A stretch of 50,125 nucleotides of DNA from Beijerinckiaceae bacterium (lineage in GTDB: Bacteria; Pseudomonadota; Alphaproteobacteria; Rhizobiales; Beijerinckiaceae). The translations under genes were made by a program, and so were the position numbers. The DNA is taken from assembly GCA_051648665.1 (NCBI GenBank), contig JBOFFO010000092.1, positions 1 through 50,125 on the forward strand, in the 5' to 3' direction. This document shows positions 2,137-39,007 of this stretch, piece by piece. Below the pieces are notes generated by a model. It did not search any database and had not been told where the DNA came from. It saw only the letters and a program-made list of their open reading frames with translations. Numbering within the stretch: the first letter of the stretch is position 1; the number at the start of each line of letters is the position of its first letter.

Positions 2137-2158
2137 ACGCCGGCATAGGAGGCGTGCA

Positions 2159-15049: not shown

Positions 15050-15331
15050 CGGGATAGGCCAAATCCTTGCCGGGCTGGTGATGCGCCCTGCCGTCACGAT
15101 GCCGGGGAAGGGTGGCCCTGTCTATTGCCTGCCGCGAGGGTCGCGGCTGCGCGCTGTGCGGGGGTTGGGCACACGGCCCTGTCATCGCCGTTTAGGCTGT
15201 TCCCTGGGGAATATCGACAGCCTAACGACCGAGGGTTAATGATGCCGTGTGGAATGAGCTGGACCAGCGGCAAGGTTGGCGCCCATCGCGCCACTGCGCA
15301 GGGGCTTCGTCCCGCATTTGGAGATGTTGAT

Positions 15332-19089: not shown

Positions 19090-21873
19090 CTACTCGGCGG
19101 CGACCGCGTGCGCCGGCAGCTTTTCGATCCGTGCTGCGCAGTATTTGAACTCGGGGATTTTTCCCATCGGATCGAGTTGCGGGTTGGTGAGGAAATTGGC
19201 CGGCGCTTCGGCGAAGCAGAAGGGAATAAACAGCATGCCTTCCGCCACATCGCGATCCTGACGGACGCGCAATGTGACTTCGCCGCGACGGGTTGCGATC
19301 CGGACAAATTCTCCCGGCGCAATATCCAGTTTGCGCATATCGTGGCGGTTCATCCCGACAATCGCTTCAGGCTCCAGCGCATCCAACTGTGATGCGCGGC
19401 GCGTCATCGCGCCGGTGTGCCAATGTTCGAGCAGGCGGCCCGTGGTGAGCACCATCGGATATTCCGCATCGGGCACTTCATCCGGCGCGCGCAATTCTGC
19501 CGGCGTGATTTTTGCGCGGCCCGATGCGGTTGGAAAGGCGTTGACGAAGATAATATCATTTCCGGGCTTGTCAGGCGCCGGGCAAGGATAGGTAACCACA
19601 TCCTCCCGCTCCAGCCGGTCCCACGTGATGTTTTTCAGCGAGGGCATGACCTGCGTCATTTCTGCAAAGACATCGGAAACATGGGCATAATTCCACGCAA
19701 GGCCGATGCGGTGAGCCAATTCCTGCACCAGCTCCCAATCCTGCCGCGCTTCACCGGGCGGCGGCACAACGGGCCGGCCAATCTGCACCTGCCGGTTGGT
19801 ATTGGTAAAGGTGCCCCATTTTTCTGCGTGCGCAGATGCCGGCAGCACTACATCGGCGTGCCAAGCGGTTTCGGTGAGAAAAATATCCTGCACGACGAGA
19901 TGCTCCAGCGTCGCCAGCGCCTTGCGCGCATGGTTCTGGTCGGGGTCTGACATCGCGGGATTTTCACCCATGATGTACATGCCCTTGATCTCGCCATGCT
20001 CGATGGCGTGCATGATTTCAACGACGGTCAAACCGCGCTTTGCATCAAGCGTCGTGCCCCAGACATTCTCATACAGGCCGCGAATGTCGTTGTTCTCAAC
20101 CGATTTATAATCAGGGAAAAACATCGGGATCAGGCCGGCATCGGATGCGCCCTGCACATTATTCTGGCCGCGCAGCGGATGCAGACCGGTGCCGGGACGT
20201 CCGATCTGGCCCGTGGTCAGAGCGAGTGCAATCAGGCAACGCGAATTATCAGTGCCATGGGTGTGCTGCGAGACACCCATGCCCCAGAAAATAATCGACG
20301 CGCTGGATTTGGCGTAAAGCCGCGCTACTTCGCGGATGGTGCCGGCGGCAATGCCGCAGAGTGGCTCCATCGCCTCCGGAGAATAACTCTGCACGCTAGC
20401 CTTCAACGCCTCGAAGCCTTCGGTATGAGCCTGCACATATTGCACATCGACGAGATTCTCATTGACGATGACGTGCAGCATGGCATTGAGCAGCGCCACA
20501 TCGGTGCCGGGCTTGAATTGCAGCACATGGCTGGCGTGACGGCCCAGGCCCTGATTTTGGCCGCGCGGATCCATGACAATGAGTTTCGCGCCGCGTTTGG
20601 CGGCTGCCTTGATATAGGTCGCCGCAACGGGGTGATTTTCCGCGGGCCTTGCACCGATGACGATCATCACCTCCGCATCCTTGGCGGCGGTGAAGGGCGC
20701 GCTCACTGCACCGGAATTCAACCCTTCCATCAATGCTGCGACGGACGAGGCATGGCATAACCGCGTGCAGTGATCGACGTTGTTGGTGCCAAAGCCCTGC
20801 CGAATCAATTTCTGGAAGAGATAGGCTTCTTCATTGGATCCCTTGGCGGAGCCGAAACCGGCGAGCGCCTTGCCGCCATCACGGGTATGAATTTTCTTGA
20901 GGCCTGATGCTGCGCGTTCCAGCGCCTCTTCCCATGTCGCCTCGCGAAAAACGCTCCACGGATTGGCAGGATCGACTTGCATCACCGCGTCCTTGCCCAC
21001 GCCTTCTTTGCGGATCAGCGGTTTCGTCAGGCGATGGGGATGATGAATATAGTCGAAGCCGAAGCGGCCCTTGACGCAGAGCCGGTTATTGTTGGCAGGC
21101 CCATCGCGGCCATCGACGTAAAGAATTTCGTTGCCCTTGATATGTGCGGTGGTCTGGCAGCCGACGCCGCAATAGGGGCAAACCGTATCAACGCTGTGGG
21201 TGGGATATTCGACGCGCACATTGTTGGCGTCGAGCAGCTTCGATTCCATGAGCGCGCCAGTGGGGCAGACCTGCACGCATTCACCGCAAGCCACGCAGGT
21301 GGATTCGCCCATTCCCTCATCAAAATCGAAAATTACCTTTGCGTCATGACCGCGATAGGCCATGCCGATGACCTCGTTCGATTGCACCTCGCGGCAGGCA
21401 CGCACGCACAGGCCACACTGGATGCAGGCATCGAGATTGACGGCGATGGCGGAATGGCTGCGGTCAGGTTGCGGCCGCCTATCGTTCGAGGGAAAGCGGC
21501 TGGTCGTGGTGACGCCCATGGCGCCGACCCAGTTCCAGAATTTCGACTGGTCGTCATGGGCTTGCTCTGGCTGCGGCTGATCGGCGACGAGCAGCTCGAA
21601 CACGAGCGCGCGGCCTTTGCTGGCACGCTCGCTTTGTGTTTTTACCTTCATGCCCGGCGTCGGCTGGCGCACGCAGGACGCCGCCAGCACGCGCTCGCCC
21701 TCAATTTCGACCACGCAGGCGCGGCAATTGCCATCGGCGCGATAGCCCGGTGCATCATGCCAGCACAGATGGGGAATGGTTGTGCCTTCGCGCTGCGCCA
21801 CCTGCCAGATGGTTTCTCCGGCTGCGGCTTCAACGGTCTTACCATCGAGTTCGAATGTGATTTTGTCTGACAT
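19090..21873 (-). CDS. fdhF: Formate dehydrogenase alpha subunit (Mo/W-bis-PGD, Cys ligand; Methylorubrum Fdh1A-like)
   Basis: N-terminal 2Fe-2S (CRAC), two 4Fe-4S motifs (CIQCGLCVRAC, CVACGECVQVCP), CPYCGVGC, CVKGRFG, CTRLCHASS, LRGQNNVQG, TTGRLLEHWHTG, IPEFK. Confidence 0.93.
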   Translation of the reverse strand: MSDKITFELDGKTVEAAAGETIWQVAQREGTTIPHLCWHDAPGYRADGNCRACVVEIEGERVLAASCVRQPTPGMKVKTQSERASKGRALVFELLVADQPQPEQAHDDQSKFWNWVGAMGVTTTSRFPSNDRRPQPDRSHSAIAVNLDACIQCGLCVRACREVQSNEVIGMAYRGHDAKVIFDFDEGMGESTCVACGECVQVCPTGALMESKLLDANNVRVEYPTHSVDTVCPYCGVGCQTTAHIKGNEILYVDGRDGPANNNRLCVKGRFGFDYIHHPHRLTKPLIRKEGVGKDAVMQVDPANPWSVFREATWEEALERAASGLKKIHTRDGGKALAGFGSAKGSNEEAYLFQKLIRQGFGTNNVDHCTRLCHASSVAALMEGLNSGAVSAPFTAAKDAEVMIVIGARPAENHPVAATYIKAAAKRGAKLIVMDPRGQNQGLGRHASHVLQFKPGTDVALLNAMLHVIVNENLVDVQYVQAHTEGFEALKASVQSYSPEAMEPLCGIAAGTIREVARLYAKSSASIIFWGMGVSQHTHGTDNSRCLIALALTTGQIGRPGTGLHPLRGQNNVQGASDAGLIPMFFPDYKSVENNDIRGLYENVWGTTLDAKRGLTVVEIMHAIEHGEIKGMYIMGENPAMSDPDQNHARKALATLEHLVVQDIFLTETAWHADVVLPASAHAEKWGTFTNTNRQVQIGRPVVPPPGEARQDWELVQELAHRIGLAWNYAHVSDVFAEMTQVMPSLKNITWDRLEREDVVTYPCPAPDKPGNDIIFVNAFPTASGRAKITPAELRAPDEVPDAEYPMVLTTGRLLEHWHTGAMTRRASQLDALEPEAIVGMNRHDMRKLDIAPGEFVRIATRRGEVTLRVRQDRDVAEGMLFIPFCFAEAPANFLTNPQLDPMGKIPEFKYCAARIEKLPAHAVAAE

Positions 21874-23585
21874 TATTTAGTCTCCGCAAAGTCGGCGGGA
21901 AAATGTTTCATGGCGCTGACGAGCGGGTTGGCCGCCGCCTGCCCGAGGCCGCAGATGGACGCATCACGCATCACCTGCGCGAGATCAGCATGGAGTTGCC
22001 GGTCCCAGTTGTTCCGTTCCATCATCGTCACAGCTTTTTCTGTGCCATTGCGGCAGGGCGTGCACTGGCCGCAGCTTTCGTCACGGAAAAACTTCATCAG
22101 GTTGAGTGCCACGTCCTTCATGTCATCTTGATCGGACAAAATGACGACCGCGTGCGAGCCGACGAAGGAGCCGTGTTTTTCAAGCTGGCCGAAATCGAGC
22201 GGAATATCGGCCATGCTCGCGGGCAAGATGCCGCCCGATGCGCCGCCGGGCAAGTAACCCTTGAACGTGTGGCCATCGACCATGCCGCCGCTGATGGCGA
22301 TGAGTTCTTCCGCCGTGACCCCGGCGGGGACCAGTTTCACACCGGGATTTTTGACGCGGCCTGAAACGGAATAGCTGCGCAGGCCCTTTGCGCCATTCTT
22401 GCCTTGCGATGCAAACCAATTGGCTCCCTTCGCAAGAATTTGCGGCACCCAGTAAAGCGTCTCGATGTTATTGACGAGGGTTGGACGGTTGAAAATGCCG
22501 ACCTGCGCCACATAGGGCGGGCGATGGCGGGGCAAGCCGCGCTTCCCCTCAATGGATTCGATCATTGCGGATTCTTCGCCGCAAATATAAGCGCCAGCGC
22601 CGCGGCGGAGATGGATTTTTGTATGGGGGCTGAGGCCCGCCGCTTCCACCGCGGCGATTTCGCGGGTGAGAATCTCGCGCGCAGCCGGATATTCGTCGCG
22701 CAGATAGATATAGACCGCCTCAGCTTCCACGGCCCATGCGCCGATGAGCATGCCTTCGAGAAAGGCATGCGGATTGGTTTCCAGATAATGCCGATCCTTG
22801 AAGGTGCCGGGTTCCCCCTCATCACCATTTACGGCCATCAGGCGCGGTCCGGGTGTGCCCCGTACCAGTCCCCATTTGCGGCCCGTAGGAAACCCTGCGC
22901 CGCCGAGGCCGCGCAAGCCGCCATCGGACAGTGTTGCAATCACGGATTCAATGGAACGGCTGCCCGCGAGGCATTCGTTGAGGACCGCATAACCGCCATC
23001 GCCGCGATAACGCGTAAAATCTGCATGGGCGGGAATTTCGGCATGCACATGCTTGTGTGCAGCCAGTTGACGCACTTTGTCCGCTGTCGCGTGATCGACA
23101 TGATGATGACCGACTTCGGCGGCGGGCGCTGTGGCGCAACTGCCGATGCAGGGCGCACGCAGCACGCGCACGCCTTGTGGCGGATTATTCTGCATTTCAG
23201 CAATCAATTTTTCCGCTCCCGCCATCATGCAGGACAGGGAATCGCAGATGCGGATGGTAATGGGGGCGGGTTTCTCTTCGCCATCGCGCACAATGGTGAA
23301 ATGCGCGTAGAAGGATGCGACTTCGTAAACCTCGGCCATGGGAATGCGCATCTCTTCAGCGAGCGCATGCATCATGCCCTCGGTCAGGCATCCGTCTGCA
23401 TCATTGATGACGTGAAGATATTCGATGAGCTCATCGCGCTGCAGCGTGCGACCGGCCAACATGGCGCGCAAGGCGTCGCGCTCCTGCGGCGCAAGCTGCC
23501 GGCCCTTGGGGAAAAAGGGCGCTTTGCGCCGTCCGGAGCCGGGGTGAATGGGGCGGCCACCCTGCGTGAAAGCAATCTGGTTCAT
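21873..23585 (-). CDS. NAD-dependent formate dehydrogenase beta subunit (fused NuoE/NuoF-like; Fdh1B-like)
   Basis: N-terminal PKGRQ...LIEYLH, CDSLSC/CIGSC 2Fe-2S, LRGLGGAGFPTG, NGDEGEPGTFKD, GAGAYICGEE, ESCGQCTPCR...SICGLG; TAATG overlap with alpha gene. Confidence 0.92.
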   Translation of the reverse strand: MNQIAFTQGGRPIHPGSGRRKAPFFPKGRQLAPQERDALRAMLAGRTLQRDELIEYLHVINDADGCLTEGMMHALAEEMRIPMAEVYEVASFYAHFTIVRDGEEKPAPITIRICDSLSCMMAGAEKLIAEMQNNPPQGVRVLRAPCIGSCATAPAAEVGHHHVDHATADKVRQLAAHKHVHAEIPAHADFTRYRGDGGYAVLNECLAGSRSIESVIATLSDGGLRGLGGAGFPTGRKWGLVRGTPGPRLMAVNGDEGEPGTFKDRHYLETNPHAFLEGMLIGAWAVEAEAVYIYLRDEYPAAREILTREIAAVEAAGLSPHTKIHLRRGAGAYICGEESAMIESIEGKRGLPRHRPPYVAQVGIFNRPTLVNNIETLYWVPQILAKGANWFASQGKNGAKGLRSYSVSGRVKNPGVKLVPAGVTAEELIAISGGMVDGHTFKGYLPGGASGGILPASMADIPLDFGQLEKHGSFVGSHAVVILSDQDDMKDVALNLMKFFRDESCGQCTPCRNGTEKAVTMMERNNWDRQLHADLAQVMRDASICGLGQAAANPLVSAMKHFPADFAETK

Positions 23586-23600
23586 GCGACACTCGCGAAC

Positions 23601-23617
23601 TGGGATGTGGCATACAA
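23601..23617. promoter_or_regulatory. 17-bp operator copy upstream of the FDH beta gene
   Basis: tgggatgtggcatacaa, 16 nt upstream of the FDH beta start. Confidence 0.5.
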
Positions 23618-23625
23618 GCCCGTTC

Positions 23626-23676
23626 TTGATAGCTATTCAAATAGAAGATTTGGAATGATTGATAGTTATTATCTAT
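23626..23676. promoter_or_regulatory. Putative LysR binding region of the fdh promoter
   Basis: AT-rich; ATAG-N7-CTAT dyad (T-N11-A) at 23662-23676 and a direct repeat ttgatagYtatt at 23626 and 23659. Confidence 0.6.
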
Positions 23677-24599
23677 TAAAAGTCGCGGTCGGCTGCCACA
23701 AGTGCACTGGCCTGCGGCAGGTCCGGTTGTTGTGCAAGTGCCGCCAGGGCTTCTACCAGCGTGGACAGGGGCGCCCGGTCCGGCACAACAAGGCCAACCA
23801 GACGGGTGATGTCCGGTTCGGTGAGCGGATGTGCCTCAACCGTCTCCGGCAAGCCGATTGCTTTCAGCATGGGGGTCGGCACGATGCTGGACCAGGGGCC
23901 TACGCCGACCTGCGCGCACAGCGATATGATTGAATTGGTTTCAAACACGGTCTGCGGCTTGCGGCCAATGGCGCGGAAAACGCCATCGATAATGCGGCGG
24001 TTCTGCATGTCCTGCGTCAGCAGACAGAGCGGCAAATCCGCAGCTTCACGCCAAGTAACTGTGGCGCGTCCGCTGAATGGCCCGCCGCGATGGGTGAGCA
24101 AGCTATAGGTTTCGGCATAAAGCGGCTTGGGCTGCACCCGCTCCAGCGGTTCGTTGTCGAGATAGGTGATGGCGGCATCGAGATCGAATTCGTCAAGCCC
24201 GCGCTGGATTTCGATGGAGGAGCGCGACAGGACCGACACGGTCACCGAGGGAAAGCGGCTGGTGAAGGGCGCGATGATCGTGCCAACAACGGCCAGCGCC
24301 GTAGGAATAACGCCGATGCGGACGGAGCCGGCGAGGCCGGCGCGAAATTGCGCCACATCTGAGCGCAGCATGCCGCATTCGGCCAGAATGCGGCGGGCGC
24401 GTTCAAGCACCCGTTCACCCTCCGCTGTGAAGCCAGTGAAACGATGGCCGCGCTCGACAATCAGCACGCCCAGTTCCTGTTCAAGCTGGCGTATGCCGGC
24501 TGACAGCGAGGGTTGCGACACATTCAGGCTGGCTGCCGCACGCGCGAAATGCTTTTCACGGGCCAACGCAACCAGATATTCAAATTGCCGCAACAGCAT
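23676..24599 (-). CDS. LysR-family transcriptional regulator (probable formate dehydrogenase regulator)
   Basis: HFARAAASLNVSQPSLSAGIRQLEQELG HTH; position directly upstream of the fdh genes (alternative GTG start 24602). Confidence 0.9.
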   Translation of the reverse strand: MLLRQFEYLVALAREKHFARAAASLNVSQPSLSAGIRQLEQELGVLIVERGHRFTGFTAEGERVLERARRILAECGMLRSDVAQFRAGLAGSVRIGVIPTALAVVGTIIAPFTSRFPSVTVSVLSRSSIEIQRGLDEFDLDAAITYLDNEPLERVQPKPLYAETYSLLTHRGGPFSGRATVTWREAADLPLCLLTQDMQNRRIIDGVFRAIGRKPQTVFETNSIISLCAQVGVGPWSSIVPTPMLKAIGLPETVEAHPLTEPDITRLVGLVVPDRAPLSTLVEALAALAQQPDLPQASALVAADRDF

Positions 24600-24624
24600 C
24601 ACATTCCCTCATGTGGCCTTGATA

Positions 24625-24683: not shown

Positions 24684-25199
24684 TCAGTAGCCGAGCGCCG
24701 CCTCCAGCGGCCCTTTCGGCAGAGGCACCAGAAACCAGACCTCGAACATCATGAAGCTGACCAGGGCAATGCCGCCAGCGACAGCGATGCATTTCAGGAT
24801 CGAGAATTTGCCGATCAGATACATGAAGCCGGCGATATAAATCGCCGAAGCAACATAAATTCCGATGACATGAATGGCGCCGACATAAACAATGGCGGGC
24901 ACAAAAATCGTTGCCATGCGCTTAAAGCCCTCGCGCGTCACCATGGTGCGCACACCGCTGGCATTGTAGGGCAGGGCGCGCCACAGGTTGATCAGGCTCG
25001 CGATCGTCATCACCACGGCGATATAGAACGGAAAATAGCCGGGCGCCGGGCCTTCATTCGGCTTCCAGCCGAAGCCGAGCCGGATGCTGTCCTTAATCAC
25101 GATGGCGCTAACAATCAGAAAAAAGACGGCGACGGCAATTTCCATCGTGCGGTAGTTGACCAGCGGCCGTTCTTCGGCGTCTTCAGTTTCATGCGACAT
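24684..25199 (-). CDS. tctB: Tripartite tricarboxylate transporter small permease TctB
   Basis: Four to five TM segments, GPAPGYFPF, C-terminal FEVWFLVPLPKGP. Confidence 0.88.
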   Translation of the reverse strand: MSHETEDAEERPLVNYRTMEIAVAVFFLIVSAIVIKDSIRLGFGWKPNEGPAPGYFPFYIAVVMTIASLINLWRALPYNASGVRTMVTREGFKRMATIFVPAIVYVGAIHVIGIYVASAIYIAGFMYLIGKFSILKCIAVAGGIALVSFMMFEVWFLVPLPKGPLEAALGY

Positions 25200-25228
25200 G
25201 CGAGGCGCTTTCAGTCAGGATCGGGGAC

Positions 25229-25255
25229 GCATCCGGCGCATGCTGCGCCGGATGC
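25229..25255. other. Perfect 12-bp stem-loop between tctC and tctB
   Basis: gcatccggcgca-tgc-tgcgccggatgc. Confidence 0.6.
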
Positions 25256-25269
25256 AGGATCAGATCAAA

Positions 25270-26292
25270 TCAGTTGGTGGCGAGGAAGCCCGCTTCCTTC
25301 ATCAGGTCGCGATGCAGGTTTTCGTTGGTGGCAACCCACTTCTCAAAATCCGCGCCGGTCAAGAAGGTCTGGTTGAATGCGCCTTTTTCCATGAATTCCT
25401 TCCAGTCCGGTGTCGCCATGACTTTCTTGAAGAGATCGACATAGAAAGCGATCTGGGCCGGCGTCGCGCCCTTGGGCATGAAGATGCCGCGCAGCATCTG
25501 ATACTCCACAGGCAAACCAGATTCCTTGCAGGTGGGAATATCGCTCCACGCCATCGTTTCCGTCACTTTGGCAGTATAGGTCGAGCGCTTGGAATCAAAG
25601 ATGCAAAGCGCGCGAAGCTGGTTGGCGCGCCACTGCGAAACGGCCTCAATGGGGTTATTGACAGTGGAATCCACATGCTTGCCAACAAGCTGGACCGCAA
25701 CCGCGCCGCCGCCGGCGTAGGGCACATAGGTGAATTTCTTGCCGCCGGTTTGTTTTTCAACGGCAACCGTTACAATCTGGTCTTCCTGCTTGGATCCCGT
25801 GCCGCCCATCTTGAATTGCCGGTCATCGCCTTTCTTCACAGCCTCGATATATTCAGCCGCTGTCTTGTAAGGCGTTTCGGCATTGACCCAGAGAATGAAT
25901 TGGTCAAGCGCCAGCATTGCAACAGGTTGCAAATCTTTCCAGCTGAACGGCGATCCCGTTGCGAGCGGGGTGGTGAAGAGATTTGACAGGGTAATGATCA
26001 GCTTGTGCGGATCACGCTGGCTGGCCTTCATTTCAAGAAAGCCTTCAGCGCCAGCGCCGCCGCCTTTGTTCACGACAATCAGCGGCTGCTTCATCAGGTT
26101 ATGTTTCTGAATCACGCCTTGCACAAAACGCGCCATCTGGTCGGCGCCGCCACCGGTGCCGGCGGGAATCACGAACGTCACCGGCTTCTGCGGCTCCCAC
26201 GCCTGCGCACGGGCGTGGGCGGTCATCGTCAGCACGGTGGCCGCAGCGGTTGCGGCCAGCGTCATCGCTTTACGAACATTCAGCACTCGCAT
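25270..26292 (-). CDS. tctC: Tripartite tricarboxylate transporter substrate-binding protein TctC (Bug family)
   Basis: Signal peptide, WEPQKPVTFVIPAGTGGGADQMAR, NKGGGAG, VPYAGGG, PTCKESG; GGAGG RBS before ATG 26292. Confidence 0.9.
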   Translation of the reverse strand: MRVLNVRKAMTLAATAAATVLTMTAHARAQAWEPQKPVTFVIPAGTGGGADQMARFVQGVIQKHNLMKQPLIVVNKGGGAGAEGFLEMKASQRDPHKLIITLSNLFTTPLATGSPFSWKDLQPVAMLALDQFILWVNAETPYKTAAEYIEAVKKGDDRQFKMGGTGSKQEDQIVTVAVEKQTGGKKFTYVPYAGGGAVAVQLVGKHVDSTVNNPIEAVSQWRANQLRALCIFDSKRSTYTAKVTETMAWSDIPTCKESGLPVEYQMLRGIFMPKGATPAQIAFYVDLFKKVMATPDWKEFMEKGAFNQTFLTGADFEKWVATNENLHRDLMKEAGFLATN

Positions 26293-26354
26293 GATTTTCG
26301 TCCTCCCGAGATGGTTTTGGTTTTTCAGCCTGTTTGTCGTTTTATCAGCAGCGC

Positions 26355-27875
26355 TCAGCGATGGGCGCGGCTGTAGCCTTTGAATTGCGGCCGGATGCGG
26401 CCCTGGATTGCCTTGATCATCGGCCAGAGCGCGAGGATCAGACCCAAAGTCATGATGCTGCCAGACAGCCAGTTTGACCAGAAGACGCCGACATTGCCTT
26501 GCGAAACGAGCATGGCCTGCCGGAACGAGCTTTCGGCCTGATCGCCAAGCACGAGTGCGAGCACCAGTGGCGGCAGCGGATACCCCAGCTTCGAGAACAG
26601 ATAGCCCATCACACCGAACACAAGCATCATCCACACATCGAACATGGCATTGTTCACCGTGAATGCACCGATGGCACAAATCACAACAATGGCAGGCGCG
26701 ATGATTGAAAATGGCACACGCAAAATGGCCGCGAACAACGGCACGCAAGTGAGCACGAGGATGAGGCCGACGACGTTACCGATATACATTGATGCGATGA
26801 GGCCCCAGACGAAGTCCGGCTTTTCGACAAACAGGAGCGGTCCCGGTTGCAGGCCCCAGATCATCAGGCCGCCAAGCAGCACGGCGGCTGTGGGTGAGCC
26901 GGGAATGCCGAGCGTCAGCATCGGCAGCAGCGCGCTGGTGCCGGCGGCATGGGCCGCCGTTTCCGGCGCGACCACGCCTTCCAGCTCGCCCTTGCCAAAA
27001 TTTTCGCCATTCTTGGAAAAGCGCTTGGCAAGGCCGTAACCCATGAAGGATGCCGGCGTCGCGCCGCCCGGCGTTATGCCCATCCAGCATCCAACAATGC
27101 AGCTGCGGACAAAGGTCATGGTCATGGCCGGCAATTTCTTCCACGTCTCAATCACCGCATTGAGGCGCAGCTTTGCATGCGCGCCCTGGAATTTCAGGCC
27201 ATCTTCCATGGATGCGAGAATTTCACCAATGCCGAACAGGCCGATGACCGCCACAAGAAACTTAAAGCCATTCAGCAGTTCGTCCTGACCAAATGTCATG
27301 CGCAGGCTGCCGGTAACATTGTCGAGGCCGACCGATGCCAGCGCAAAGCCAAGGCACATGGATGCGAGTGTCTTGAACGGCGAACCACGGCCCATGCCGA
27401 TGAAGCTGGCAAAGGTCAGGAATTGAACGGCAAAAAATTCGGCTGGCCCGAACTTGAGCGCGAATTTCGCCACAACGGGAGCCAGAAACGTGATCATTGC
27501 CACAGCGACAATTGCGCCCACGAAAGACGAGGTGAACGCGCCAACCAGCGCTTCATCAGCCTTGCCATTCTGCGCCATGGGGTGCCCGTCGAACGTGGTC
27601 GCCACAGACCAGGGTTCGCCGGGGATATTGAACAGGATGGAGGTGATGGCACCGCCAAACAGCGCGCCCCAGTAAATGCAGGTCAAAAGGATGATCGCCG
27701 ATGTCGGCGGCATGGTGAAGGTCAGCGGCAACAAAATGGCGACGCCATTGGCGCCGCCGAGACCTGGGAGAACACCGATGATGATGCCGAGAACAATACC
27801 GATCACCATCAACAGGATATTGTAGGGGGAAATTGCGACCGCAAATCCGCCCATCAGGGCGCTGAGTTCTTCCAC
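26355..27875 (-). CDS. tctA: Tripartite tricarboxylate transporter large permease TctA
   Basis: GVLPGLG, GGAITSILFNIPG, FDGHPMA, APETAAHA, PMLTLGIPGS, GLQPGP; GTG start at 27875 with GGAG RBS. Confidence 0.92.
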   Translation of the reverse strand: MEELSALMGGFAVAISPYNILLMVIGIVLGIIIGVLPGLGGANGVAILLPLTFTMPPTSAIILLTCIYWGALFGGAITSILFNIPGEPWSVATTFDGHPMAQNGKADEALVGAFTSSFVGAIVAVAMITFLAPVVAKFALKFGPAEFFAVQFLTFASFIGMGRGSPFKTLASMCLGFALASVGLDNVTGSLRMTFGQDELLNGFKFLVAVIGLFGIGEILASMEDGLKFQGAHAKLRLNAVIETWKKLPAMTMTFVRSCIVGCWMGITPGGATPASFMGYGLAKRFSKNGENFGKGELEGVVAPETAAHAAGTSALLPMLTLGIPGSPTAAVLLGGLMIWGLQPGPLLFVEKPDFVWGLIASMYIGNVVGLILVLTCVPLFAAILRVPFSIIAPAIVVICAIGAFTVNNAMFDVWMMLVFGVMGYLFSKLGYPLPPLVLALVLGDQAESSFRQAMLVSQGNVGVFWSNWLSGSIMTLGLILALWPMIKAIQGRIRPQFKGYSRAHR

Positions 27876-27989
27876 CGGCGGTTCTCCCAAACCTGTGTTG
27901 TCATGCTTTTCGTTGTTATTCTTGCGGTCCTGCTGACTTTGATCAGTCCGCTTGATGAACCGAGACATACAGCTAATCAAAACTTCATC

Positions 27990-28085: not shown

Positions 28086-28129
28086 AGAACCAGCGCCTTT
28101 CGCGCGCATGAGATGGACTTGGTTTGAGA

Positions 28130-28816
28130 ATGCCCGGCGCCCGCTTGCAGATCAGGCCTATCGAAGAGGCTCCCAGCCTCAAGACGCGCACCTATGAAGC
28201 GCTGAAGGCGGCGATCAACGCCATGAATATTTATGCCGAAGGGGCGGAGCTGCGGCTCGATGAGCGCGCATTGTCGCTGCAATTCGGCGTAAGCCGCACG
28301 CCGCTGCGGGAAGCTGTTGCCCAGCTTGAACAGGAAGGGCTTGTGGCGGTTGCGCCGCGCAGGGGCATTTTTATCGTTCGTAAGACGAAAGCCGAAATTC
28401 TGGAAATGATCACGGTCTGGGCCGCGCTGGAAAGCATGGCCGCGCGGCTCGTGACGGAGGTTGCGACTGACGAGGAAATCGCGTCCCTGCACACGCTTGT
28501 GGATGATTTTGCGGCCAGCGCCATCGCAGCCAAAATGGGCGAGTATTCCGACGCCAATATCAAGTTTCACGGCACAATCATCGCGCTGTCCCGCTGCCAG
28601 AAGCTTGTTGAGATCACCAATGGGCTGTTTATGCATGTGCGCGCCATCCGCCATCGCGCGATCTTTGAAAAGGATCGCGCAAAGCGGTCCGTCGCCGACC
28701 ACAAGGAAATTGTCGAAGCGCTGGAAACCCGTCACGCCGAGCGTGCCGAGCGGCTTGTGCGCGAACATACACTCCGCCTGCGCGATCACGTCGCGCAACA
28801 TGTATCCATCGATTAA
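28130..28816 (+). CDS. GntR-family (FCD/FadR-type) transcriptional regulator of the oxalate cluster
   Basis: RLDERALSLQFGVSRTPLREA HTH; FCD domain (NIKFH, SVADHKEIVEAL, REHT). Confidence 0.92.
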   Translation: MPGARLQIRPIEEAPSLKTRTYEALKAAINAMNIYAEGAELRLDERALSLQFGVSRTPLREAVAQLEQEGLVAVAPRRGIFIVRKTKAEILEMITVWAALESMAARLVTEVATDEEIASLHTLVDDFAASAIAAKMGEYSDANIKFHGTIIALSRCQKLVEITNGLFMHVRAIRHRAIFEKDRAKRSVADHKEIVEALETRHAERAERLVREHTLRLRDHVAQHVSID

Positions 28817-28855: not shown

Positions 28856-30562
28856 ATGTCCACCGAAACCGAACGCGAATTGACTGACGGGTTTCATCTT
28901 GTCATCGATGCGCTCAAGCTCAATGGCGTGAAAACCATTTACAATGTGCCTGGCATTCCGATCACGGACTTGGGGCGCATGGCGCAGGCGGCGGGCTTGC
29001 GCGTCATTTCCTTCCGGCATGAGCAGCATGCGGGCAATGCGGCGGCTATTGCCGGCTTTCTCACAAAACAGCCGGGCATCTGCCTGACTGTGTCTGCGCC
29101 GGGCTTTCTCAATGGCCTGACTGCGCTTGCGAATGCGACCACAAACTGCTTCCCGATGATTCTCATCTCAGGCTCCTCCGAGCGCGAGATTGTCGATCTT
29201 CAGCAGGGCGATTACGAGGAGATGGATCAGCTCGCGATTGCCAAGCCCTTGTGCAAAGCAGCGTTCCGCGTGCTGCATGCAGCCGATATTGGCATTGGCG
29301 TGGCGCGGGCGATTCGCGCCGCTGTCTCGGGCCGTCCTGGCGGCGTCTATCTCGATCTCCCGGCGAAACTGTTCTCGCAGGTTATGGATGCGGAAGCAGG
29401 CCAGAAATCCCTCGTAAAGGTCATTGATGCGGCTCCTGCACAAATTCCGGCGCCGGATGCGGTGAAGCGCGCGCTTGAGGTGCTGAAAGCCGCGAAACGG
29501 CCGCTCATTATTTTGGGAAAGGGCGCTGCCTATGCGCAAGCCGATGACGCGATTCGACAATTTGTTGAAAAAAGCGGCGCGCCGTTCCTGCCGATGAGCA
29601 TGGCCAAGGGCCTTTTGCCGGATACGCATCCGCAATCAGCCGGTGCAGCACGCTCAACCGTGTTGAAAGATGCTGATGTTGTCATGCTGATCGGCGCTCG
29701 GCTGAACTGGCTGTTATCGCACGGCAAGGGCAAAACGTGGGGTGATGCGCCGAAGAAATTCATTCAGATTGACATTGAGCCGAAGGAGATGGACTCCAAC
29801 GTCGAGATTGTCGCACCAGTTGTTGGCGATATTGGCTCCTGCGTGCAGGCCTTGCTGGCCGGCATGGGAGGCAACTGGACGTCGCCGCCGGCGGACTGGA
29901 CAAATGCCGTCAACAGCAAGCGTGAAGAAAATATCGCCAAGATGGCGCCGCGTTTGATGAATAACAAGTCGCCGATGGATTTCCACGGCGCGCTGGGTGC
30001 ATTACGTCAGGTGATCAAGGAGCGGCCTGACGCTATTCTCGTGAATGAGGGCGCCAATACGCTCGATCTCGCTCGCGGTGTCATCGATATGTACAAGCCG
30101 CGCAAACGGCTCGATGTCGGTACATGGGGCGTGATGGGCATTGGCATGGGCTTTGCCATCGCGGCCGCCATTGAAACCGGCAAGCCTGTGCTGGCTGTGG
30201 AAGGCGACAGCGCGTTCGGATTTTCCGGCATGGAGGTCGAGACGATCTGCCGCTATAATTTGCCGGTGTGTGTTGTCGTGTTCAACAATAACGGGATTTA
30301 TCGCGGCACGGACGTTAACGCGGCGGGTGATGATCCAGCCACGACTGTATTCGTCAAAGATTCGCGGTACGACAAGATGATGGAAGCGTTTGGCGGCGTC
30401 GGCGTAAACGCGACATCGCCGGATGAGCTGAAAAGAGCCGTGGATGCGGCCATGGATTCCGGCAAGCCCACCCTCATCAATGCTGTGATCGACCCGGCGG
30501 CAGGCAGTGAATCTGGCCGGATCGGCAATCTCAATCCACAAAGCATGCTGAAAAAGAAATAA
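28856..30562 (+). CDS. oxc: Oxalyl-CoA decarboxylase
   Basis: [66 protein letters not shown]...NNNG (TPP), GSESG. Confidence 0.97.
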
Positions 30563-30573
30563 GGAGCAGGACG

Positions 30574-31851
30574 ATGAAAGCCCTTGCAGGTGTCAAGATT
30601 CTTGATTTCACCCATGTGCAGTCCGGCCCGACGTGCACGCAGCTCCTCGCCTGGTTCGGCGCAGATTGCATTAAGGTCGAGCGTCCTGGTTCCGGAGACA
30701 TCACACGCGGGCAGTTGCAGGATGTGCCGAATGCGGACAGCCTGTATTTCACAATGCTGAATCACAACAAGCGGTCGATTACGCTAGATACGAAAAATAA
30801 GAAGGGCCTTGAGGTTCTCGAACGTCTGATCAAGACATGTGATGTGCTGGTGGAAAATTTTGCACCTGGTGTGCTGGATCGGATGGGCTTCACTTGGGAG
30901 CGCATTCAGGAACTCAATCCGCGTATGATCTATGCCTCGGTCAAAGGGTTTGGTCCTGGCCCGTATGAAGATTGTAAGGTTTATGAAAACGTTGCGCAGT
31001 GTACCGGCGGCTCTGCCTCGACAACGGGCTTTCGTGATGGCCCGCCCCTCGTAACGGGCGCACAAATCGGCGATTCCGGCACCGGACTTCATCTGGCGCT
31101 TGGCATCGTTACTGCGCTTTATCACCGCACGCATTCCGGCAAGGGGCAACGCGTGGTTTGCGCCATGCAGGATGGCGTGCTCAATCTGGCGCGCGTGAAG
31201 TTGCGCGATCAGCAGCGGCTCGCGCACGGGCCGCTAAAAGAATATAGCCAGTTTGGCGAAGGCATTCCCTTCGGCGAAGCGACGCCGCGCGCAGGCAACG
31301 ATTCTGGCGGTGGTCAGCCTGGCCGCATCCTGAAGTGCAAGGGCTGGCAGAACGACCCGAACGCTTACATTTATTTCATTACGCAAGCGCCGGTTTGGGA
31401 AGCCATCTGCGACGTGATTGGCGAGCCGGAATGGAAAACGCATCCAGATTACGCCAAGCCGGGCGCACGGTTGCCGCGTCTGAATGAAATCTTTGGCCGA
31501 ATCGAACAGTGGACGATGACAAAGACCAAGTTCGAAGCCATGGATATTCTGAATCAGTACGATATTCCGTGCGGGCCGATCCTTTCCATGAAAGAGCTGG
31601 CGGAAGATCAATCGCTGCGCGCAACGGGCACGATTGTTGAGGTCGATCATCCCACCCGTGGAAAATATCTTTCGGTGGGCAATCCGATCAAGCTGTCGGA
31701 CTCGCCCGCTGAGGTCAAACGTTCGCCGCTTCTGGGCGAGCATACGGACGAGATTCTGTCGTCGGTGCTTGGTTATTCGGCGGCTGAGATCGAAGCCATC
31801 AAGGCATCCGGTGCGACCGAGCCGCCGCCGAAAAAAGCGGCTGCGGAATAA
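30574..31851 (+). CDS. frc: Formyl-CoA:oxalate CoA-transferase
   Basis: [42 protein letters not shown] (catalytic Asp), [10 protein letters not shown] glycine loop. Confidence 0.97.
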
Positions 31852-31922
31852 GATCGCCATAGGTTTAAGGAGGGCGGACAAACGCCGCCTTCATCCCCGT
31901 CTCGTTTCCAGAGGATAATCGC

Positions 31923-32855
31923 ATGCGGATCGTGGTTCATGGACAAGAAGCTTTCGGCAAGGCTGTGCTTGAAAAGCTCTTGGCGCGCGGCGAAAATGTC
32001 GTTGGCGTCTTCTGTGCTCCGGACAAGGAAGGCCGCCCTCAGGATCCTTTGAAGCTGTATGCACTTGAAAAAAATATTCCTGTCCATCAACCCAAAAGCT
32101 GGAAGACGCCGGAAGCGCTGGATCTGATGAAGTCTTTCAATCCGGATGTCTGCATGATGGCGTATGTAACGTTGTTTGTACCACAACCTGTTATTGATGC
32201 GCCGAAATACAACACTTTCCAGTATCATCCGTCACTGTTGCCGATGCATCGTGGCCCTTCGTCCATTAATTGGCCGATTGCCATGGGAGCCAAGAAGACT
32301 GGATTGACAATTTTCTGGCCGGATGAGGGCCTTGATGAGGGGCCGATCCTTTTGCAGAAAGAAGTCGAGATAGGGCCTGACGAGACTTTGGGCGACGTGT
32401 ACTTTAAAAAGCTGTTTCCCATCGGCGTTGATGCAATGATCGAATCGCTCGATCTCGTGCGTAGCGGAAAAGCGCCCAAGATCGTTCAGGATTTGTCGAA
32501 AGGCTCATATGAGAGCTGGTTCCGCAAGGATGCCGCAGGCATCGACTGGTCGAAGAGCGCGGCGGATATTTATAACTTGATCCGTGCCGCGAATCCGCAA
32601 CCCGGGGCATGGGCATTGTTCAACGGCACGGAAGTGCAGTTCTTTGACTCGGTGCGTCGTGATGGGGCAGGCGTAAGCGGCACCATCAGCGCTATCGATG
32701 CCGATGGCGTGACGGTTGCGGGTAATGATGGAAGCATTTTGCTGAAGCGCGTCAAAGCAGCCGGAGGGCAAAAGGTTGCAGCGCAGGAATGGGCTGCTTC
32801 GGCCGGCGCCAAGGTCGGTGACCGCTTCGAAAATGCGCCGAAAAAACAAACATAA
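31923..32855 (+). CDS. Formyltransferase-fold protein (Fmt-like; most similar by motif to the ALDH1L1 10-formyl-THF hydrolase/transfer domain)
   Basis: MRIVVHGQEAFG, VVGVFCAPDKEG, QYHPSLLPMHRGPSSINW, GLTIFWPDEGLDEGPILLQ, IDW...IYNLIRAANPQPGAW. Confidence 0.85.
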   Translation: MRIVVHGQEAFGKAVLEKLLARGENVVGVFCAPDKEGRPQDPLKLYALEKNIPVHQPKSWKTPEALDLMKSFNPDVCMMAYVTLFVPQPVIDAPKYNTFQYHPSLLPMHRGPSSINWPIAMGAKKTGLTIFWPDEGLDEGPILLQKEVEIGPDETLGDVYFKKLFPIGVDAMIESLDLVRSGKAPKIVQDLSKGSYESWFRKDAAGIDWSKSAADIYNLIRAANPQPGAWALFNGTEVQFFDSVRRDGAGVSGTISAIDADGVTVAGNDGSILLKRVKAAGGQKVAAQEWAASAGAKVGDRFENAPKKQT

Positions 32856-32897
32856 GTGTTGCGCTAAAGAATACAGCAAGATTGGGAAGGGAATGTC

Positions 32898-34577
32898 ATG
32901 AGCGTTAAATCGGATATCGAGATTGCCCGCGAAGCAAAAATGAAACCAATCGCCGAGGTTGGGAAGAAGATTGGTATTCCGGCAGATGCGCTGTTGAATT
33001 ATGGCCCGACGAAGGCCAAGGTGTCATTTGATTTCATCGAGGCACAGAGGAAAAACAAGAATGGCAAGCTCATTCTTGTGACGGCGATCAATCCAACGCC
33101 AGCGGGTGAAGGAAAGACAACGACTACTGTTGGCCTGGGCGATGGTCTTAACCGCATTGGCAAAAAAGCGATGAGCTGCCTGCGTGAACCTTCGCTTGGC
33201 CCATGTTTCGGCGTCAAAGGCGGGGCGGCTGGCGGCGGCTATGCGCAGGTCGTGCCGATGGAAGATATCAATCTGCATTTCACGGGTGATTTTCACGCCA
33301 TCACTTCGGCGCACAACCTGTTGTCTGCACTTTTGGATAACCACATCTATTGGGGCAATGCGCTTGGCATTGACCAACGCCGTGTGGGTTGGCGCCGGGT
33401 TATGGATATGAATGACCGTGCGCTGCGCTCAATTGTCAATTCACTCGGCGGCACAGCCAATGGTTTTCCGCGCGAAGATGGTTTCGACATTACTGTCGCA
33501 TCGGAAGTGATGGCGATTTTTTGTCTCGCGACGGACTTGAAGGATCTGGAACGTCGTATCGGCAACATCGTCGTCGCTTATACCCGCGATAAAAAGCCCA
33601 TTCATGCGCGCGATCTGAAGGGCGACGGCGCGATGACCGTGCTGCTCAAGGACGCCTTGATGCCAAATCTGGTGCAGACACTGGAGAACAATCCAGTCTT
33701 CATCCACGGTGGCCCGTTCGCGAATATCGCTCACGGCTGCAACTCTGTTCTCGCGACCACAACGGCTCTAAAGTTGTGTGACTATGTGGTGACCGAAGCG
33801 GGATTTGGCGCTGATCTTGGCGCTGAGAAATTCTTTGATATCAAATGCCGCAAAGCAGGCCTGACACCTTCGGCTACTGTGATCGTTGCGACGATCCGCG
33901 CGCTGAAAATGCATGGTGGTGTCGCCAAGGATGGATTGAAGGAAGAGAATGTCGCCGCTGTTGCCAAGGGCTGCGATAACCTCAAGCGTCATATCGAGAA
34001 TGTGCGGAAATTTGGCGTATCGCCGGTGGTGGCCATCAACAAATTCATCACGGATACGGATGCAGAGATCGCTGCCGTCAAGAAAGCTGCCGAGGAGATG
34101 GGTGCGAAGGCTTTCCTTTGCACGCACTGGGCCGATGGCGGTGCTGGCATCGAAGATCTGGCGCGCCATGTGGTGGACTTGTGCGACAAGAATGACGATG
34201 CGCAGTTCAAGCCGCTCTATCCCGACAGCATGACGCTGCGCGACAAGGTTAAGTCAATCGCGACAGAAATCTATCGGGCTTCCGATATTTCCTGTGACGC
34301 CTCGGTTGAAGCGCGATTCAAGGAACTTCAGGATGCTGGGTATGGCCATTTCCCGGTCTGCATGGCCAAGACGCAGTATTCATTCTCGACCAATCCTAAT
34401 GCCCGCGGTGCGCCGACAGGTCATGTCGTTCCCGTGCGTGAGTTGCGGCTTTCTGCCGGCGCGGAATTTATTGTCGTTGTGACCGGCGACATTATGACCA
34501 TGCCGGGTCTTCCCAAGGTTCCATCAGCCGATGTCATTCGCCTCAATGCGCAGGGGCAGATTGAAGGCCTGTTCTAG
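32898..34577 (+). CDS. fhs: Formate--tetrahydrofolate ligase (FtfL/Fhs)
   Basis: [82 protein letters not shown]. Confidence 0.97.
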
Positions 34578-34604: not shown

Positions 34605-34631
34605 ACGCCGGCCTTTTGGCCGGCGTTTTTT
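34605..34631 (+). terminator. Rho-independent terminator of the gntR-oxc-frc-fmt-fhs operon
   Basis: acgccggcc-tttt-ggccggcgt followed by a T-run. Confidence 0.8.
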
Positions 34632-35358
34632 ATGCTTCGGGATGTGCAGAATTCCATGCCGCCGCATAGGTTTCACAGAAGGTATCAAGCGCAGCACGAT
34701 CGAGCACGCCGCCAGGATTGGCGCGCGTTGGTCCGCAAGCCTGAAAAGGCACATATCTTTGATGCGCCTTGCGCCACAAGCGGCGCATTTCGTTCAGGGG
34801 ATCGGCGTGATCATCCACGCGCATATCGATGACGGGAAAGACGTCGGCATCCCAGATGCGGAGGGCCGCAGATTGTTTGCCGCGCTTGTCGCCTCCAGCC
34901 CGCTCGCCGGCTTCCAGCGACAGAAGCAGGCGATCATCAAAATCAAGAGCGGGATTATCGAGATAGCATGCCAGTGTATCGGCAATAACGCGCTCATTGG
35001 CGAGCATATTACCGGCCACTGACACATTGGCTGCACGTACAGCGCCACACCAGGGAACGCAGGCTTCGCCGGTAAAAGCTGCGATATTGCCGTCTCGATC
35101 CAGAATATGAGCCTGACGCAGGGCCGCTCCAGGGTCGGCTGCGACAACAATATTCAGCGTTTCCTGCGCGGTGCGCCCTTCCTGAAGTAATCGAAGCCCA
35201 TCAACGCCAATCAGGGGATTCACGAAGGATTGTGTGGCGACAACACCAATATTTCCGCATCCGAATGGCACCCGTGCTCCCACAGCGAAGGCACAGGTTG
35301 AAACAGCAATGCCGAAGCGGCCGGACGCTTTATCGCGCGCGAGAATGGACCATGTCAT
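34630..35358 (-). CDS. DUF1028 family protein (Ntn-hydrolase fold)
   Basis: MTWSILARD (Thr2 nucleophile position), FAVGARVP, VATQ, FTG, AGNML, AGGDKRGKQSAAL, DMRVDDH. Confidence 0.85.
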   Translation of the reverse strand: MTWSILARDKASGRFGIAVSTCAFAVGARVPFGCGNIGVVATQSFVNPLIGVDGLRLLQEGRTAQETLNIVVAADPGAALRQAHILDRDGNIAAFTGEACVPWCGAVRAANVSVAGNMLANERVIADTLACYLDNPALDFDDRLLLSLEAGERAGGDKRGKQSAALRIWDADVFPVIDMRVDDHADPLNEMRRLWRKAHQRYVPFQACGPTRANPGGVLDRAALDTFCETYAAAWNSAHPEA

Positions 35359-35368
35359 GGCGTTTCCT

Positions 35369-37183
35369 TCATCGTCCGATGGCATAGGCTTGCATGAGGC
35401 GCGGCGTTGCTGCGGCGCGCAGCACGCCGTCACGTCCTTTTTCTGCTGCTGTCAACCGTCCGACAGACCATGCCGCTGCCTGTTCAATGCGGTGACCGCG
35501 TTTCTCCAGCGCCGCAATGGTTTCAGCGCCCGCTGTTTCTTCAATCATGAGATGGCCGGGGTTGGCCTCGCGCGGGTAGAAGGATGATGGCGCATGGGCG
35601 GTGTGAAATAGCGGCAGATCGATCGCTTCCTGCAGATTTAAACCGTGATGCACGCGCCGCAGAAACAGCGGCAGCTGCCACTGCTCCTGCTGATCGCCGC
35701 CGGGGGTGCCGAACGCAAGGCGGGGCTCGCCATCCTCAAAGGCAATCGAGGGCGTCAGCGTTGTGCGAGGGCGGCGTCCGGGCGCCAGCGATGTCGGCCG
35801 GCCTTCTTCGAGCCAGAACATTTGTGCGCGGCTATTGAGCGGAAACCCCAATTCCGGAATCACGGGCGATGATTGTAGCCAGCCACCGGAAGGGGTGGCG
35901 GCAATCATATTGCCTTCCTGATCGATGACATCGATATGCACGGTGTCGCCGCGTCGCGCTCCCGCTTGTTGCGCTGTCGCCATCATGGATTGCAACGTTG
36001 GCTCGCCGACTGCGGCGCTGCCCGCTACATCGGCATTGACCAGCCGCACGCTTTTCATCATGCGCGCAACCTGATTTTCAAAGCCGCTTATCATGCCGGG
36101 GCGAATATCATGAGAGGCGCGATCGGTGATCAGTGACCGTCGGTCTGCTGCATAGGCATTTGACAGCAATGTATCGAGCGGAATTGCTGAAAAATCCGGA
36201 TCGCCATAATAGGCTTCGCGATCAGCGAAGGCGAGTTTGACGGCTTCCGCGACCAGATGCGTAAACTCAGCAGCGCTGGGGCCGAGCTTGGCAATGTCGA
36301 AGCCTTCAAGAATTTTAAGCGCCTGCAGAAAGGCTGGTCCCTGTCCCCAGGGTCCTGTCTTAAATACCGTCCAATTGTGATAATCAGCGCTCGCAGGTTT
36401 GTCGTACGTTGCCTGCCATTGCGCCATGTCATGACCGGTCAGCAATCCGCGATGGCGGCGGCCTGATGAATCCATGACTTCCTGTGTGCGGCAAAATGCA
36501 TCGATTGCCTCTGCCACAAAACCCTGAGACCAGCTGCGTCGCGCTGCATCGATTTGCTGATCCCGTGCGCCGCTTGCCGATTCAGCCTCGCGCAAAATGC
36601 GCTCATAGGTTTCGGCAACCGCTATATTGCGAAACAGCGCATGGGCCTTTGGCGTTTCTCCGCCAGGCAAATACACGGCCGCAGATGTGGGCCACTCGTC
36701 TATAAACAGATCTTTGACACCTGCGATCTGATCGGCAACACGGGGGAGCATGGGGTGCCCGTTGCGCGCATATCCAATGGCTGGTGTAAGAACCTCGCGC
36801 AGCGACAACCGCCCATGGTCACGCAGCAGCATCATCCAGCCATCAAATGCACCCGGCACAACCGTTGCCAGCAAGCCAGAACCCGGCACAAGATCAAGCC
36901 CCAGCGCGCGATAGGCTGCGATGGTTGCAGCTTGCGGCGCTACGCCTTGCGCGCAAAGAACTTCAACTTTTTTTGCTTTGGCATTGTAGAAAACGGCCGG
37001 CATATCGCCGGCTGGACCCACCAGATGCGGTTCGACGATTTGCAACACGAAGGCAGCAGCGATGCATGCGTCAAATGCGTTGCCGCCTTTTTCGAGCATG
37101 GCCATACCAGAGGCGGACGCGAGCCAATGCGTTGATGTCACAACGCCAAAGGTTCCGCGAATTTCAGGGCGCGTGGTGAACAT
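35369..37183 (-). CDS. Gamma-glutamyltransferase-family Ntn hydrolase
   Basis: GGNAFDA, VPGAFDGW, KLAFADREAYYGDP, D|TVHIDVID autocleavage Thr, PGRRPRTTLTP, GTPGGDQQ. Confidence 0.88.
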   Translation of the reverse strand: MFTTRPEIRGTFGVVTSTHWLASASGMAMLEKGGNAFDACIAAAFVLQIVEPHLVGPAGDMPAVFYNAKAKKVEVLCAQGVAPQAATIAAYRALGLDLVPGSGLLATVVPGAFDGWMMLLRDHGRLSLREVLTPAIGYARNGHPMLPRVADQIAGVKDLFIDEWPTSAAVYLPGGETPKAHALFRNIAVAETYERILREAESASGARDQQIDAARRSWSQGFVAEAIDAFCRTQEVMDSSGRRHRGLLTGHDMAQWQATYDKPASADYHNWTVFKTGPWGQGPAFLQALKILEGFDIAKLGPSAAEFTHLVAEAVKLAFADREAYYGDPDFSAIPLDTLLSNAYAADRRSLITDRASHDIRPGMISGFENQVARMMKSVRLVNADVAGSAAVGEPTLQSMMATAQQAGARRGDTVHIDVIDQEGNMIAATPSGGWLQSSPVIPELGFPLNSRAQMFWLEEGRPTSLAPGRRPRTTLTPSIAFEDGEPRLAFGTPGGDQQEQWQLPLFLRRVHHGLNLQEAIDLPLFHTAHAPSSFYPREANPGHLMIEETAGAETIAALEKRGHRIEQAAAWSVGRLTAAEKGRDGVLRAAATPRLMQAYAIGR

Positions 37184-38997: not shown

Positions 38998-39007
38998 GAT
39001 ACGGCGG

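Follow-up and report, generated by a model that had tools for sequence, protein, structure and literature searches.

The window analysed here is a stretch of 50,125 nucleotides from a Beijerinckiaceae bacterium (contig JBOFFO010000092.1), in which a stand-alone 310-aa formyltransferase (FT) is encoded between frc and fhs in an oxalate operon. Comparison of sequences and gene content indicated that FT is quite probably a reversible formyltransferase between 10-formyltetrahydrofolate (10-formyl-THF) and coenzyme A (CoA). A narrower proposal, to which we give an even chance, is that its net flux in the window operon runs toward formyl-CoA and, together with Fhs, primes the Frc/Oxc cycle. The widest reading is put forward tentatively: the FT family would be a free-standing hub between formyl-CoA and folate, which with Fhs, often as a fused protein, acts as a natural ADP-forming formate:CoA ligase interchangeable with a single-chain ligase; in organisms with Frc it would prime the breakdown of oxalate, and where formyl-CoA comes from a 2-hydroxyacyl-CoA lyase (HACL) it would recover the one-carbon (C1) unit and thioester energy of that compound; the N-domain of animal ALDH1L1 would have its origin inside this group of CoA-using prokaryotic proteins, a tethered pantetheine having taken the place of CoA. 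The operon comprises the following elements:

28124..28816, + strand: GntR/FCD regulator, first gene of the operon (Pfam GntR and FCD)
28856..30562, + strand: oxc, oxalyl-CoA decarboxylase, the formyl-CoA source (TIGR03254, 1040 bits, cut-off 739)
30574..31851, + strand: frc, formyl-CoA:oxalate CoA-transferase (TIGR03253, 724 bits, cut-off 504)
31923..32855, + strand: FT, stand-alone 310-aa formyltransferase, relative of the ALDH1L1 N-domain (Pfam Formyl_trans_N and C)
32898..34577, + strand: fhs, formate--tetrahydrofolate ligase (PRK13505, 932 bits, cut-off 652)
34605..34632, + strand: intrinsic terminator-like hairpin and T run at the operon end (hairpin scan, fold z-score)

The open reading frames (ORFs) and the NCBIfam and Pfam matches agreed with the order oxc-frc-FT-fhs proposed in the initial annotation, with the GntR gene in front. 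Spacers were short (39 bp for GntR-oxc, 11 bp for oxc-frc, 71 bp for frc-FT and 42 bp for FT-fhs), and we infer that the five genes are co-transcribed. The strong terminator that had been described was also recovered, as a hairpin at 34605-34626 with nine pairs, eight of them G-C, followed by a T run; it was the strongest among 16 sites (8.5 expected), with a fold z-score of -2.4. A hairpin sought between frc and FT gave no signal (z = 0.04), and a promoter scan of the window returned three signals vs 3.5 by chance.

By sequence, FT was nearer to the N-domain of 10-formyl-THF dehydrogenase (FDH, ALDH1L1/L2) than to Fmt, its database label, as had been supposed from seven motifs, all of which were found in the translation (GQEAFG, VVGVFCAPDKEG, YHPSLLPMHRGPSSINW, IFWPDEGLDEG, LFPIG, GKAP and PGAW). 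Six ALDH1L1/FDH entries headed the ranking of PDB sequences (197-214 bits), followed by Fmt (up to 146), ArnA (up to 88) and HypX (up to 42); the best solved relative was the ALDH1L1/L2 N-domain (PDB 4qpd, 1s3i, 2bw0), with 36% identity and 214 bits. FT scored below the cut-off of all seven NCBIfam models that it matched; the scores were 160.4 bits for Fmt (TIGR00460, cut-off 201.5), 20.8 bits for PurU (TIGR00655, cut-off 286), 118 bits for ArnA (cut-off 777) and 139 bits for the PRK06988 sugar N-formyltransferase (cut-off 316). Its Pfam domains were Formyl_trans_N and C alone, with no N-terminal ACT domain, and it had neither the C-terminal crotonase domain nor the hyp gene context of HypX. 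By these sequence criteria, FT is not an Fmt, PurU, ArnA or HypX protein.

Residues H102, S104 and D138 of FT aligned with the FDH triad His106/Ser108/Asp142 (PMC6802093) and were invariant in 149/149 family sequences. FT and ALDH1L have in common the motifs GQ, DP, YHPS, INW, IFW and FP-G, which are absent from Fmt, and FT lacks the Fmt hallmarks GT-P, N-x-H, SP and PI. The Fmt rows carried Thr (27/28), Asn (28/28) and Pro (28/28) where FT has GQ, Gln100 and SI; this Asn, which in Fmt precedes the catalytic His by two residues, is a catalytic residue as well. In a Foldseek search with the AlphaFold model of FT (pLDDT 95), five FDH domains came top by E-value, with TM-scores of 0.83-0.87 for FDH and 0.89-0.92 for Fmt; the fold search was discarded as a discriminator because the TM-scores for Fmt were equal or higher.

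An IQ-TREE tree was built with 70 of the 113 collected sequences, after 17 long-branched or redundant rows had been removed following inspection of a FastTree tree and Fmt had been thinned; ArnA, LctF, HypX and the formylation domains of non-ribosomal peptide synthetases were left out of it. The oxalate-linked FT family formed one group (100/99), nested in a 48-row non-Fmt group (100/100) that held all 11 ALDH1L domains. ALDH1L and the oxalate clade were not direct sisters, the nearest rows to ALDH1L being other stand-alone proteins. The oxalate clade branched farther from the ALDH1L N-domain than did several prokaryotic lineages of this kind, of about 310 aa (P0270 from Chloroflexota, P0327, P0347, P0260, P0297 and others). 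The closest named relatives of FT came from Hyphomicrobiaceae genomes (70-72% identity). In P0169 (688 aa, eight members) FT is fused behind a membrane and repeat-like segment, for which Pfam gave no hit at 1e-5.

Of 593 genome loci and 596 metagenome loci, the best 80 of each were compared for gene neighbourhood, a selection biased to close relatives. The gene frc lay directly 5' of FT in 102/139 loci with enough flank and fhs directly 3' in 81/140. Adjacency to frc was found in 57/62 loci at 65% identity or more, 17/22 at 60-65% and 28/55 at 50-60%. The slot for an enzyme dependent on thiamine diphosphate (ThDP) before frc held Oxc in 45/112 loci, a second ThDP enzyme in 39/112 and neither in 28/112; both together were never seen. 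The second enzyme shows about 25% identity to Oxc and has HACLs as its best solved relatives; it probably represents a second oxalyl-CoA decarboxylase family, which surveys with oxc as marker would overlook; examples stand in L031, L033 (L033:5960-7675), L034, L035 and L038, all under every NCBIfam cut-off. A plasmid search returned one FT family member among five records. At 49% identity, the annotated plasmid of Paracoccaceae strain La 6 (CP031587, LA6_005544) carries GntR-oxc-frc-'fmt_2'-fhs amid the serine-cycle genes glyA, sga, hpr and ppc.

The genome-wide distribution of FT was examined in a class sample of 151 genomes, nearly all one per family, and in an order sample of 251 genomes. 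In the class sample FT was called in 13 genomes (at least 300 bits; next score 145; G036 counted as a non-match only), Frc in 15, Fhs in 73 and PurU in 32. All 13 FT genomes carried both Frc and Fhs and none carried PurU; the associations were significant by Fisher test (FT-Frc, 5e-17; FT-Fhs, 4e-5), with values inflated by kinship. Oxc (six genomes) and the second ThDP enzyme (nine genomes) were mutually exclusive and together accounted for the 15 Frc genomes. In the order sample Frc was present in 54/54 FT genomes and in 71 genomes overall, 17 of them without FT; across both samples, all 66 FT genomes had Frc. A further 13 genomes were chosen for FT loci without frc, of which seven had Frc elsewhere and six had no close Frc match. 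The five Frc-less FT genomes tested all had Fhs (5/5), and 4/5 had a close bacterial HACL, two of these scoring 815 and 843 bits to PDB 8vza and the other two being 76-77% identical to one of them. HACL releases formyl-CoA (PMC7176365). Judged from gene content, the common factor of FT genomes is a formyl-CoA source plus Fhs, not oxalate as such.

Fusions were surveyed among 120 of the 301 longer FT relatives. At least 37 clusters of those listed were full-length FT-Fhs fusions of 860-900 aa; 36 of these had varied Ala/Pro/Lys linkers and were 67-79% identical to the window FT, and the fusion was a single frame in the DNA of L050, L124 and L137. Beyond the FT family itself, the next matches among those listed were ALDH1L1/L2. 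In a eukaryotic protein of 920 aa (P0171, EukProt, from the diplonemid Namystynia karyoxenos), FT is fused with a ThDP domain of Oxc/HACL type that is 45% identical to Oxc; the entry is a single transcriptome cluster open to contamination or mis-assembly. Apparent Frc-FT fusions (P0135, P0164, P0187) and one FT-Fhs entry (P0130) were left uncounted, as their sequences suggested an artefact of frameshift or read-through.

An ADP-forming acyl-CoA ligase of about 700 aa was frequent in Frc loci that lack FT, and is a candidate oxalate- or formate-CoA ligase. It was counted at 70% identity or more, which excluded three matches at 35-36%, with a query chosen after the FT-negative loci had been viewed. 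Among 85 Frc genomes, the ligase was present in 0/54 with FT directly after frc, in 5/12 with FT elsewhere and in 12/19 without FT, that is, in 17/31 genomes not having FT directly after frc. By genus, FT after frc was found in 33 and the ligase in 10 of 56 genera, with no overlap. In 5/11 loci the ligase occupied the slot of FT, starting 109-159 bp past frc. It was found in 0/160 FT loci and, in a search with a positive control, in 0/9 genomes of other groups with FT and frc. Ligase genes beside oxc/frc were seen in L213-L216 (L216:3396-5570), L218, L219, L223, L232 and L234-L236. A ligase at 64% identity stands beside HACL in a Frc-less genome (L254:10247-12376), and G401 carries FT, HACL and the ligase without Frc.

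FT would work most likely as LctF and the FDH N-domain do, moving the formyl group between 10-formyl-THF and CoA, with CoA as the predicted acceptor and the direction likewise predicted. Asp142 of FDH activates the thiol of the pantetheine group onto which formyl is transferred (PMC6802093); HypX transfers it onto bound CoA (PMC6802093; PMC12134894), and LctF converts 10-formyl-THF and free CoA to formyl-CoA in vitro (PMC11730586). Together, FT and Fhs would form a two-step ADP-forming formate:CoA ligase in which THF is recycled, with the net reaction formate + ATP + CoA to formyl-CoA + ADP + inorganic phosphate, the same kind of reaction that the single-chain replacing ligase would catalyse. 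The Frc/Oxc cycle needs charging at start-up and after losses, and FT with Fhs would prime it and top it up at a cost of one ATP. Half-lives in quenched mixtures were 1.9 h for formyl-CoA and 29 h for oxalyl-CoA (PMC3720670). Because formyl-CoA is labile and YfdE has been described as a priming enzyme, priming was ranked first for the window operon, and it was the best fit of the three options in the initial annotation; the acquisition of FT in place of the ligase would fit a charging role. The formyl exchange proposed there between CoA and THF gained support from the genome profile, the fusions and the replacement pattern, but parts of that proposal did not hold. Contrary to the statement that no such reaction had been described, LctF performs it in vitro (PMC11730586) and HypX internally (PMC6802093; PMC12134894). 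By stoichiometry, the suggested ATP-free entry of oxalate carbon into folate should bring no saving at steady state on oxalate, and the suggested ATP gain through reverse Fhs should be offset, since a diverted formyl-CoA must be paid for elsewhere: Frc uses one formyl-CoA per oxalate activated, so no net saving or gain of ATP would result.

Several observations weigh against a general priming role. Adjacency to frc drops to 28/55 loci at 50-60% identity, and in the six of 13 orphan-FT genomes without a Frc match priming is impossible. The count of 12/19 is partly circular, as the ligase query was picked from FT-negative loci, and 7/19 FT-less Frc genomes also lacked the ligase; one of these seven had YfdE, three had a second frc paralog and three had no identifiable substitute. 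FT and the ligase occurred together in G154, G330, G370, G396, G078 and G401, with FT away from frc in each. Such ligases are reversible, so that the replacement supports energy-conserving transfer without fixing its direction; the ligase may also activate oxalate rather than formate, as could the SucCD-like ligases near FT in some loci. A PanE2-type reductase, as a drain of oxalyl-CoA, had no close match in the window genome (best 29%; genome 85.6% complete), and G085, the only class-sample genome with a HACL match, has no FT. YfdE was found in 0/251 genomes of the order sample and 1/151 of the class sample, in an Oxc and Frc genome without FT, and the replacement of YfdE by FT was rejected as a general rule on this single case.

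The alternative that survives best keeps the same transferase with its net flux from formyl-CoA to 10-formyl-THF, as a salvage of labile formyl-CoA or as a source of ATP via reverse Fhs, with oxalate activated by another enzyme; we consider it possible but doubtful. This direction would be obligatory in genomes that draw formyl-CoA from HACL and lack Frc (4/5 of the Frc-less FT genomes tested, all with Fhs). The La 6 plasmid operon amid glyA, sga, hpr and ppc, folD directly upstream of FT in L181, and SucCD-like ligases near some FT loci, which could supply oxalyl-CoA, also speak for it, as does the tendency of ADP-forming ligases to run toward ATP. With Frc in the operon, however, each diverted formyl-CoA would require one new oxalate activation without net ATP benefit; no ortholog of a SucC-like protein, YfdE or the ADP-forming ligase was found in the window genome (85.6% complete), and the gain of FT in the place of the ligase suits a charging role.

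It is improbable that FT instead acts by hydrolysis, whether on 10-formyl-THF to yield formate and THF in the manner of PurU, as the initial annotation had allowed, or on formyl-CoA as a thioesterase. PDB entries do name the FDH N-domain a hydrolase domain, this domain has thiol-dependent hydrolase activity, and PurU was over the cut-off in 0/15 Frc genomes, so that FT could substitute for it. PurU was scarcer, however, in genomes with Fhs in general (8/73 vs 24/78 without Fhs, p = 0.005), as expected if a hydrolase alongside Fhs sets up a futile cycle that burns ATP, and its absence from FT genomes was no greater than expected among Fhs genomes (0/13 vs 8/60, p = 0.34); FT was therefore rejected as a PurU substitute. 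PurU avoids Fhs, whereas FT accompanies it (13/13) and is fused to it, and the PurU-like option is further disfavoured by the match of about 21 bits against a cut-off of 286 and the missing ACT domain. There would be no reason for a folate hydrolase to co-occur with Frc and HACL, and the Frc cycle would lose its formyl-CoA to a thioesterase.

It is very improbable that FT formylates a different acceptor, whether the pantetheine of a carrier protein (in the manner of a split FDH), a Met-tRNA or some small amine. In favour of this, the nearest characterised relative uses a carrier protein, an aldehyde dehydrogenase (ALDH) gene directly precedes FT in G370 and G396, and TM-scores fail to separate FDH from Fmt. 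Against it, ALDH adjoins FT in these two loci only and scores higher with general ALDHs (539 bits) than with the ALDH domain of FDH (430-439 bits), so that a split bacterial FDH was rejected; two carrier proteins of the window genome used as queries matched nothing in any fetched locus; the genome has a housekeeping def-fmt; and FT is without Fmt motifs and, in the 70-sequence tree, on a 100/100 branch apart from Fmt. In the window genome, contig C129 carries this def-fmt, whose end falls on C135, so def is indeed not adjacent to FT. The reported absence of a carrier protein or ALDH domain at the locus was likewise borne out: FT is a 310-aa ORF with its own stop, no ALDH gene adjoins it in the window, and the three carrier-protein matches in the genome are all on other contigs.

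The reversible transferase reading has precedents in known chemistry. LctF, the lactacystin formyltransferase of Streptomyces lactacystinicus (PMC11730586), is like FT a stand-alone enzyme with the Fmt fold, and its in vitro reaction is the one proposed for FT, a likeness by reaction rather than by sequence comparison; unlike FT, which accompanies Frc and Fhs in catabolic operons for C1/oxalate metabolism, it makes a polyketide synthase starter unit in a natural-product cluster. The N-domain of HypX transfers formyl from 10-formyl-THF to CoA by His/Asp catalysis (PMC6802093; PMC12134894), but it is only 17-18% identical to FT, its CoA stays bound, and a fused crotonase domain decarbonylates formyl-CoA to CO. 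The ALDH1L1/L2 N-domain resembles FT in the His/Ser/Asp triad, the motifs and, within the tree of 70 sequences, its side of the 100/100 split from Fmt, and differs in its fused carrier and ALDH domains, of which FT has neither. Fmt has the same two-domain fold and formyl donor as FT and differs in motifs, with FT under its family cut-off and a separate def-fmt in the genome. YfdE/UctC, an acetyl-CoA:oxalate CoA-transferase, is described as priming the Frc/Oxc cycle at times of formyl-CoA shortage (PMC3720670), the role proposed for FT, but has a class III CoA-transferase fold and spends acetyl-CoA instead of ATP via folate. A link to acetone formylation by sulfate reducers was not adopted; the paper on it (PMC7888143) commits to no formyl donor and mentions no FT-like enzyme.

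A weak literature search, with most subscription journals outside its reach, returned nothing on the FT family in oxalate operons, the Fhs fusion or the ligase. The chemistry itself is already known from LctF and HypX; the novelty would lie in the catabolic role, for which no earlier description was found and comparative support appears strong. If the reading is correct, a missing step would be added to bacterial oxalate and formyl-CoA metabolism, and the 'fmt' label would be corrected on thousands of proteins (7999/8000 scored candidates passed E 1e-20, a set that may include other formyltransferases). It would also provide a natural route from formate or folate C1 units to formyl-CoA for synthetic C1 work, with FT-Fhs fusions ready-made, and a concrete origin for the formyl-transfer domain of ALDH1L1.

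Other genes recurred around FT and the oxalate operons. PanE-like genes, which we presume may be oxalyl-CoA reductases draining the cycle, were near FT in 17/160 loci. In L225 (4820-8710) and L226, a divergent regulator with a helix-turn-helix and a periplasmic-binding-protein-like domain is followed by ALDH immediately before FT, away from frc; this regulator may resemble the formate-responsive FdsR. A divergent SucC/SucD-like pair, under the SucC cut-off where scored, recurred next to oxalate operons, both those that contain FT and those that lack it (L049, L061, L062, L071, L080, L138, L217, L223, L234, L236 and L240).

Two clusters lie upstream of the window operon, the coordinates of the first being ORF bounds with later true starts:

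24684..27980, - strand: tctA-tctC-tctB, divergent tripartite tricarboxylate transporter (Pfam TctA, TctC, TctB)
19090..24602, - strand: LysR regulator and beta and alpha subunits of an NAD-type formate dehydrogenase (TIGR01591, 744 bits, cut-off 666; NuoE/F-like subunit)

The transporter likely serves oxalate uptake, and the formate dehydrogenase would be a formate sink. In related loci with full 7-kb flanks, a GntR-like gene was present in 40/55 and tctA in 33/55. A second class III CoA-transferase-like match, 32% identical to Frc, lies 27 kb from the operon (2087-3304, + strand). A PrtD-type type I secretion ABC permease/ATPase and an HlyD adaptor are encoded at 14543-18446 (+ strand). Downstream, at 34630-42620 (- strand), DUF1028 and gamma-glutamyltranspeptidase genes (Pfam) and, judged from its translations, a peptide ABC transporter cluster converge on the fhs terminator.

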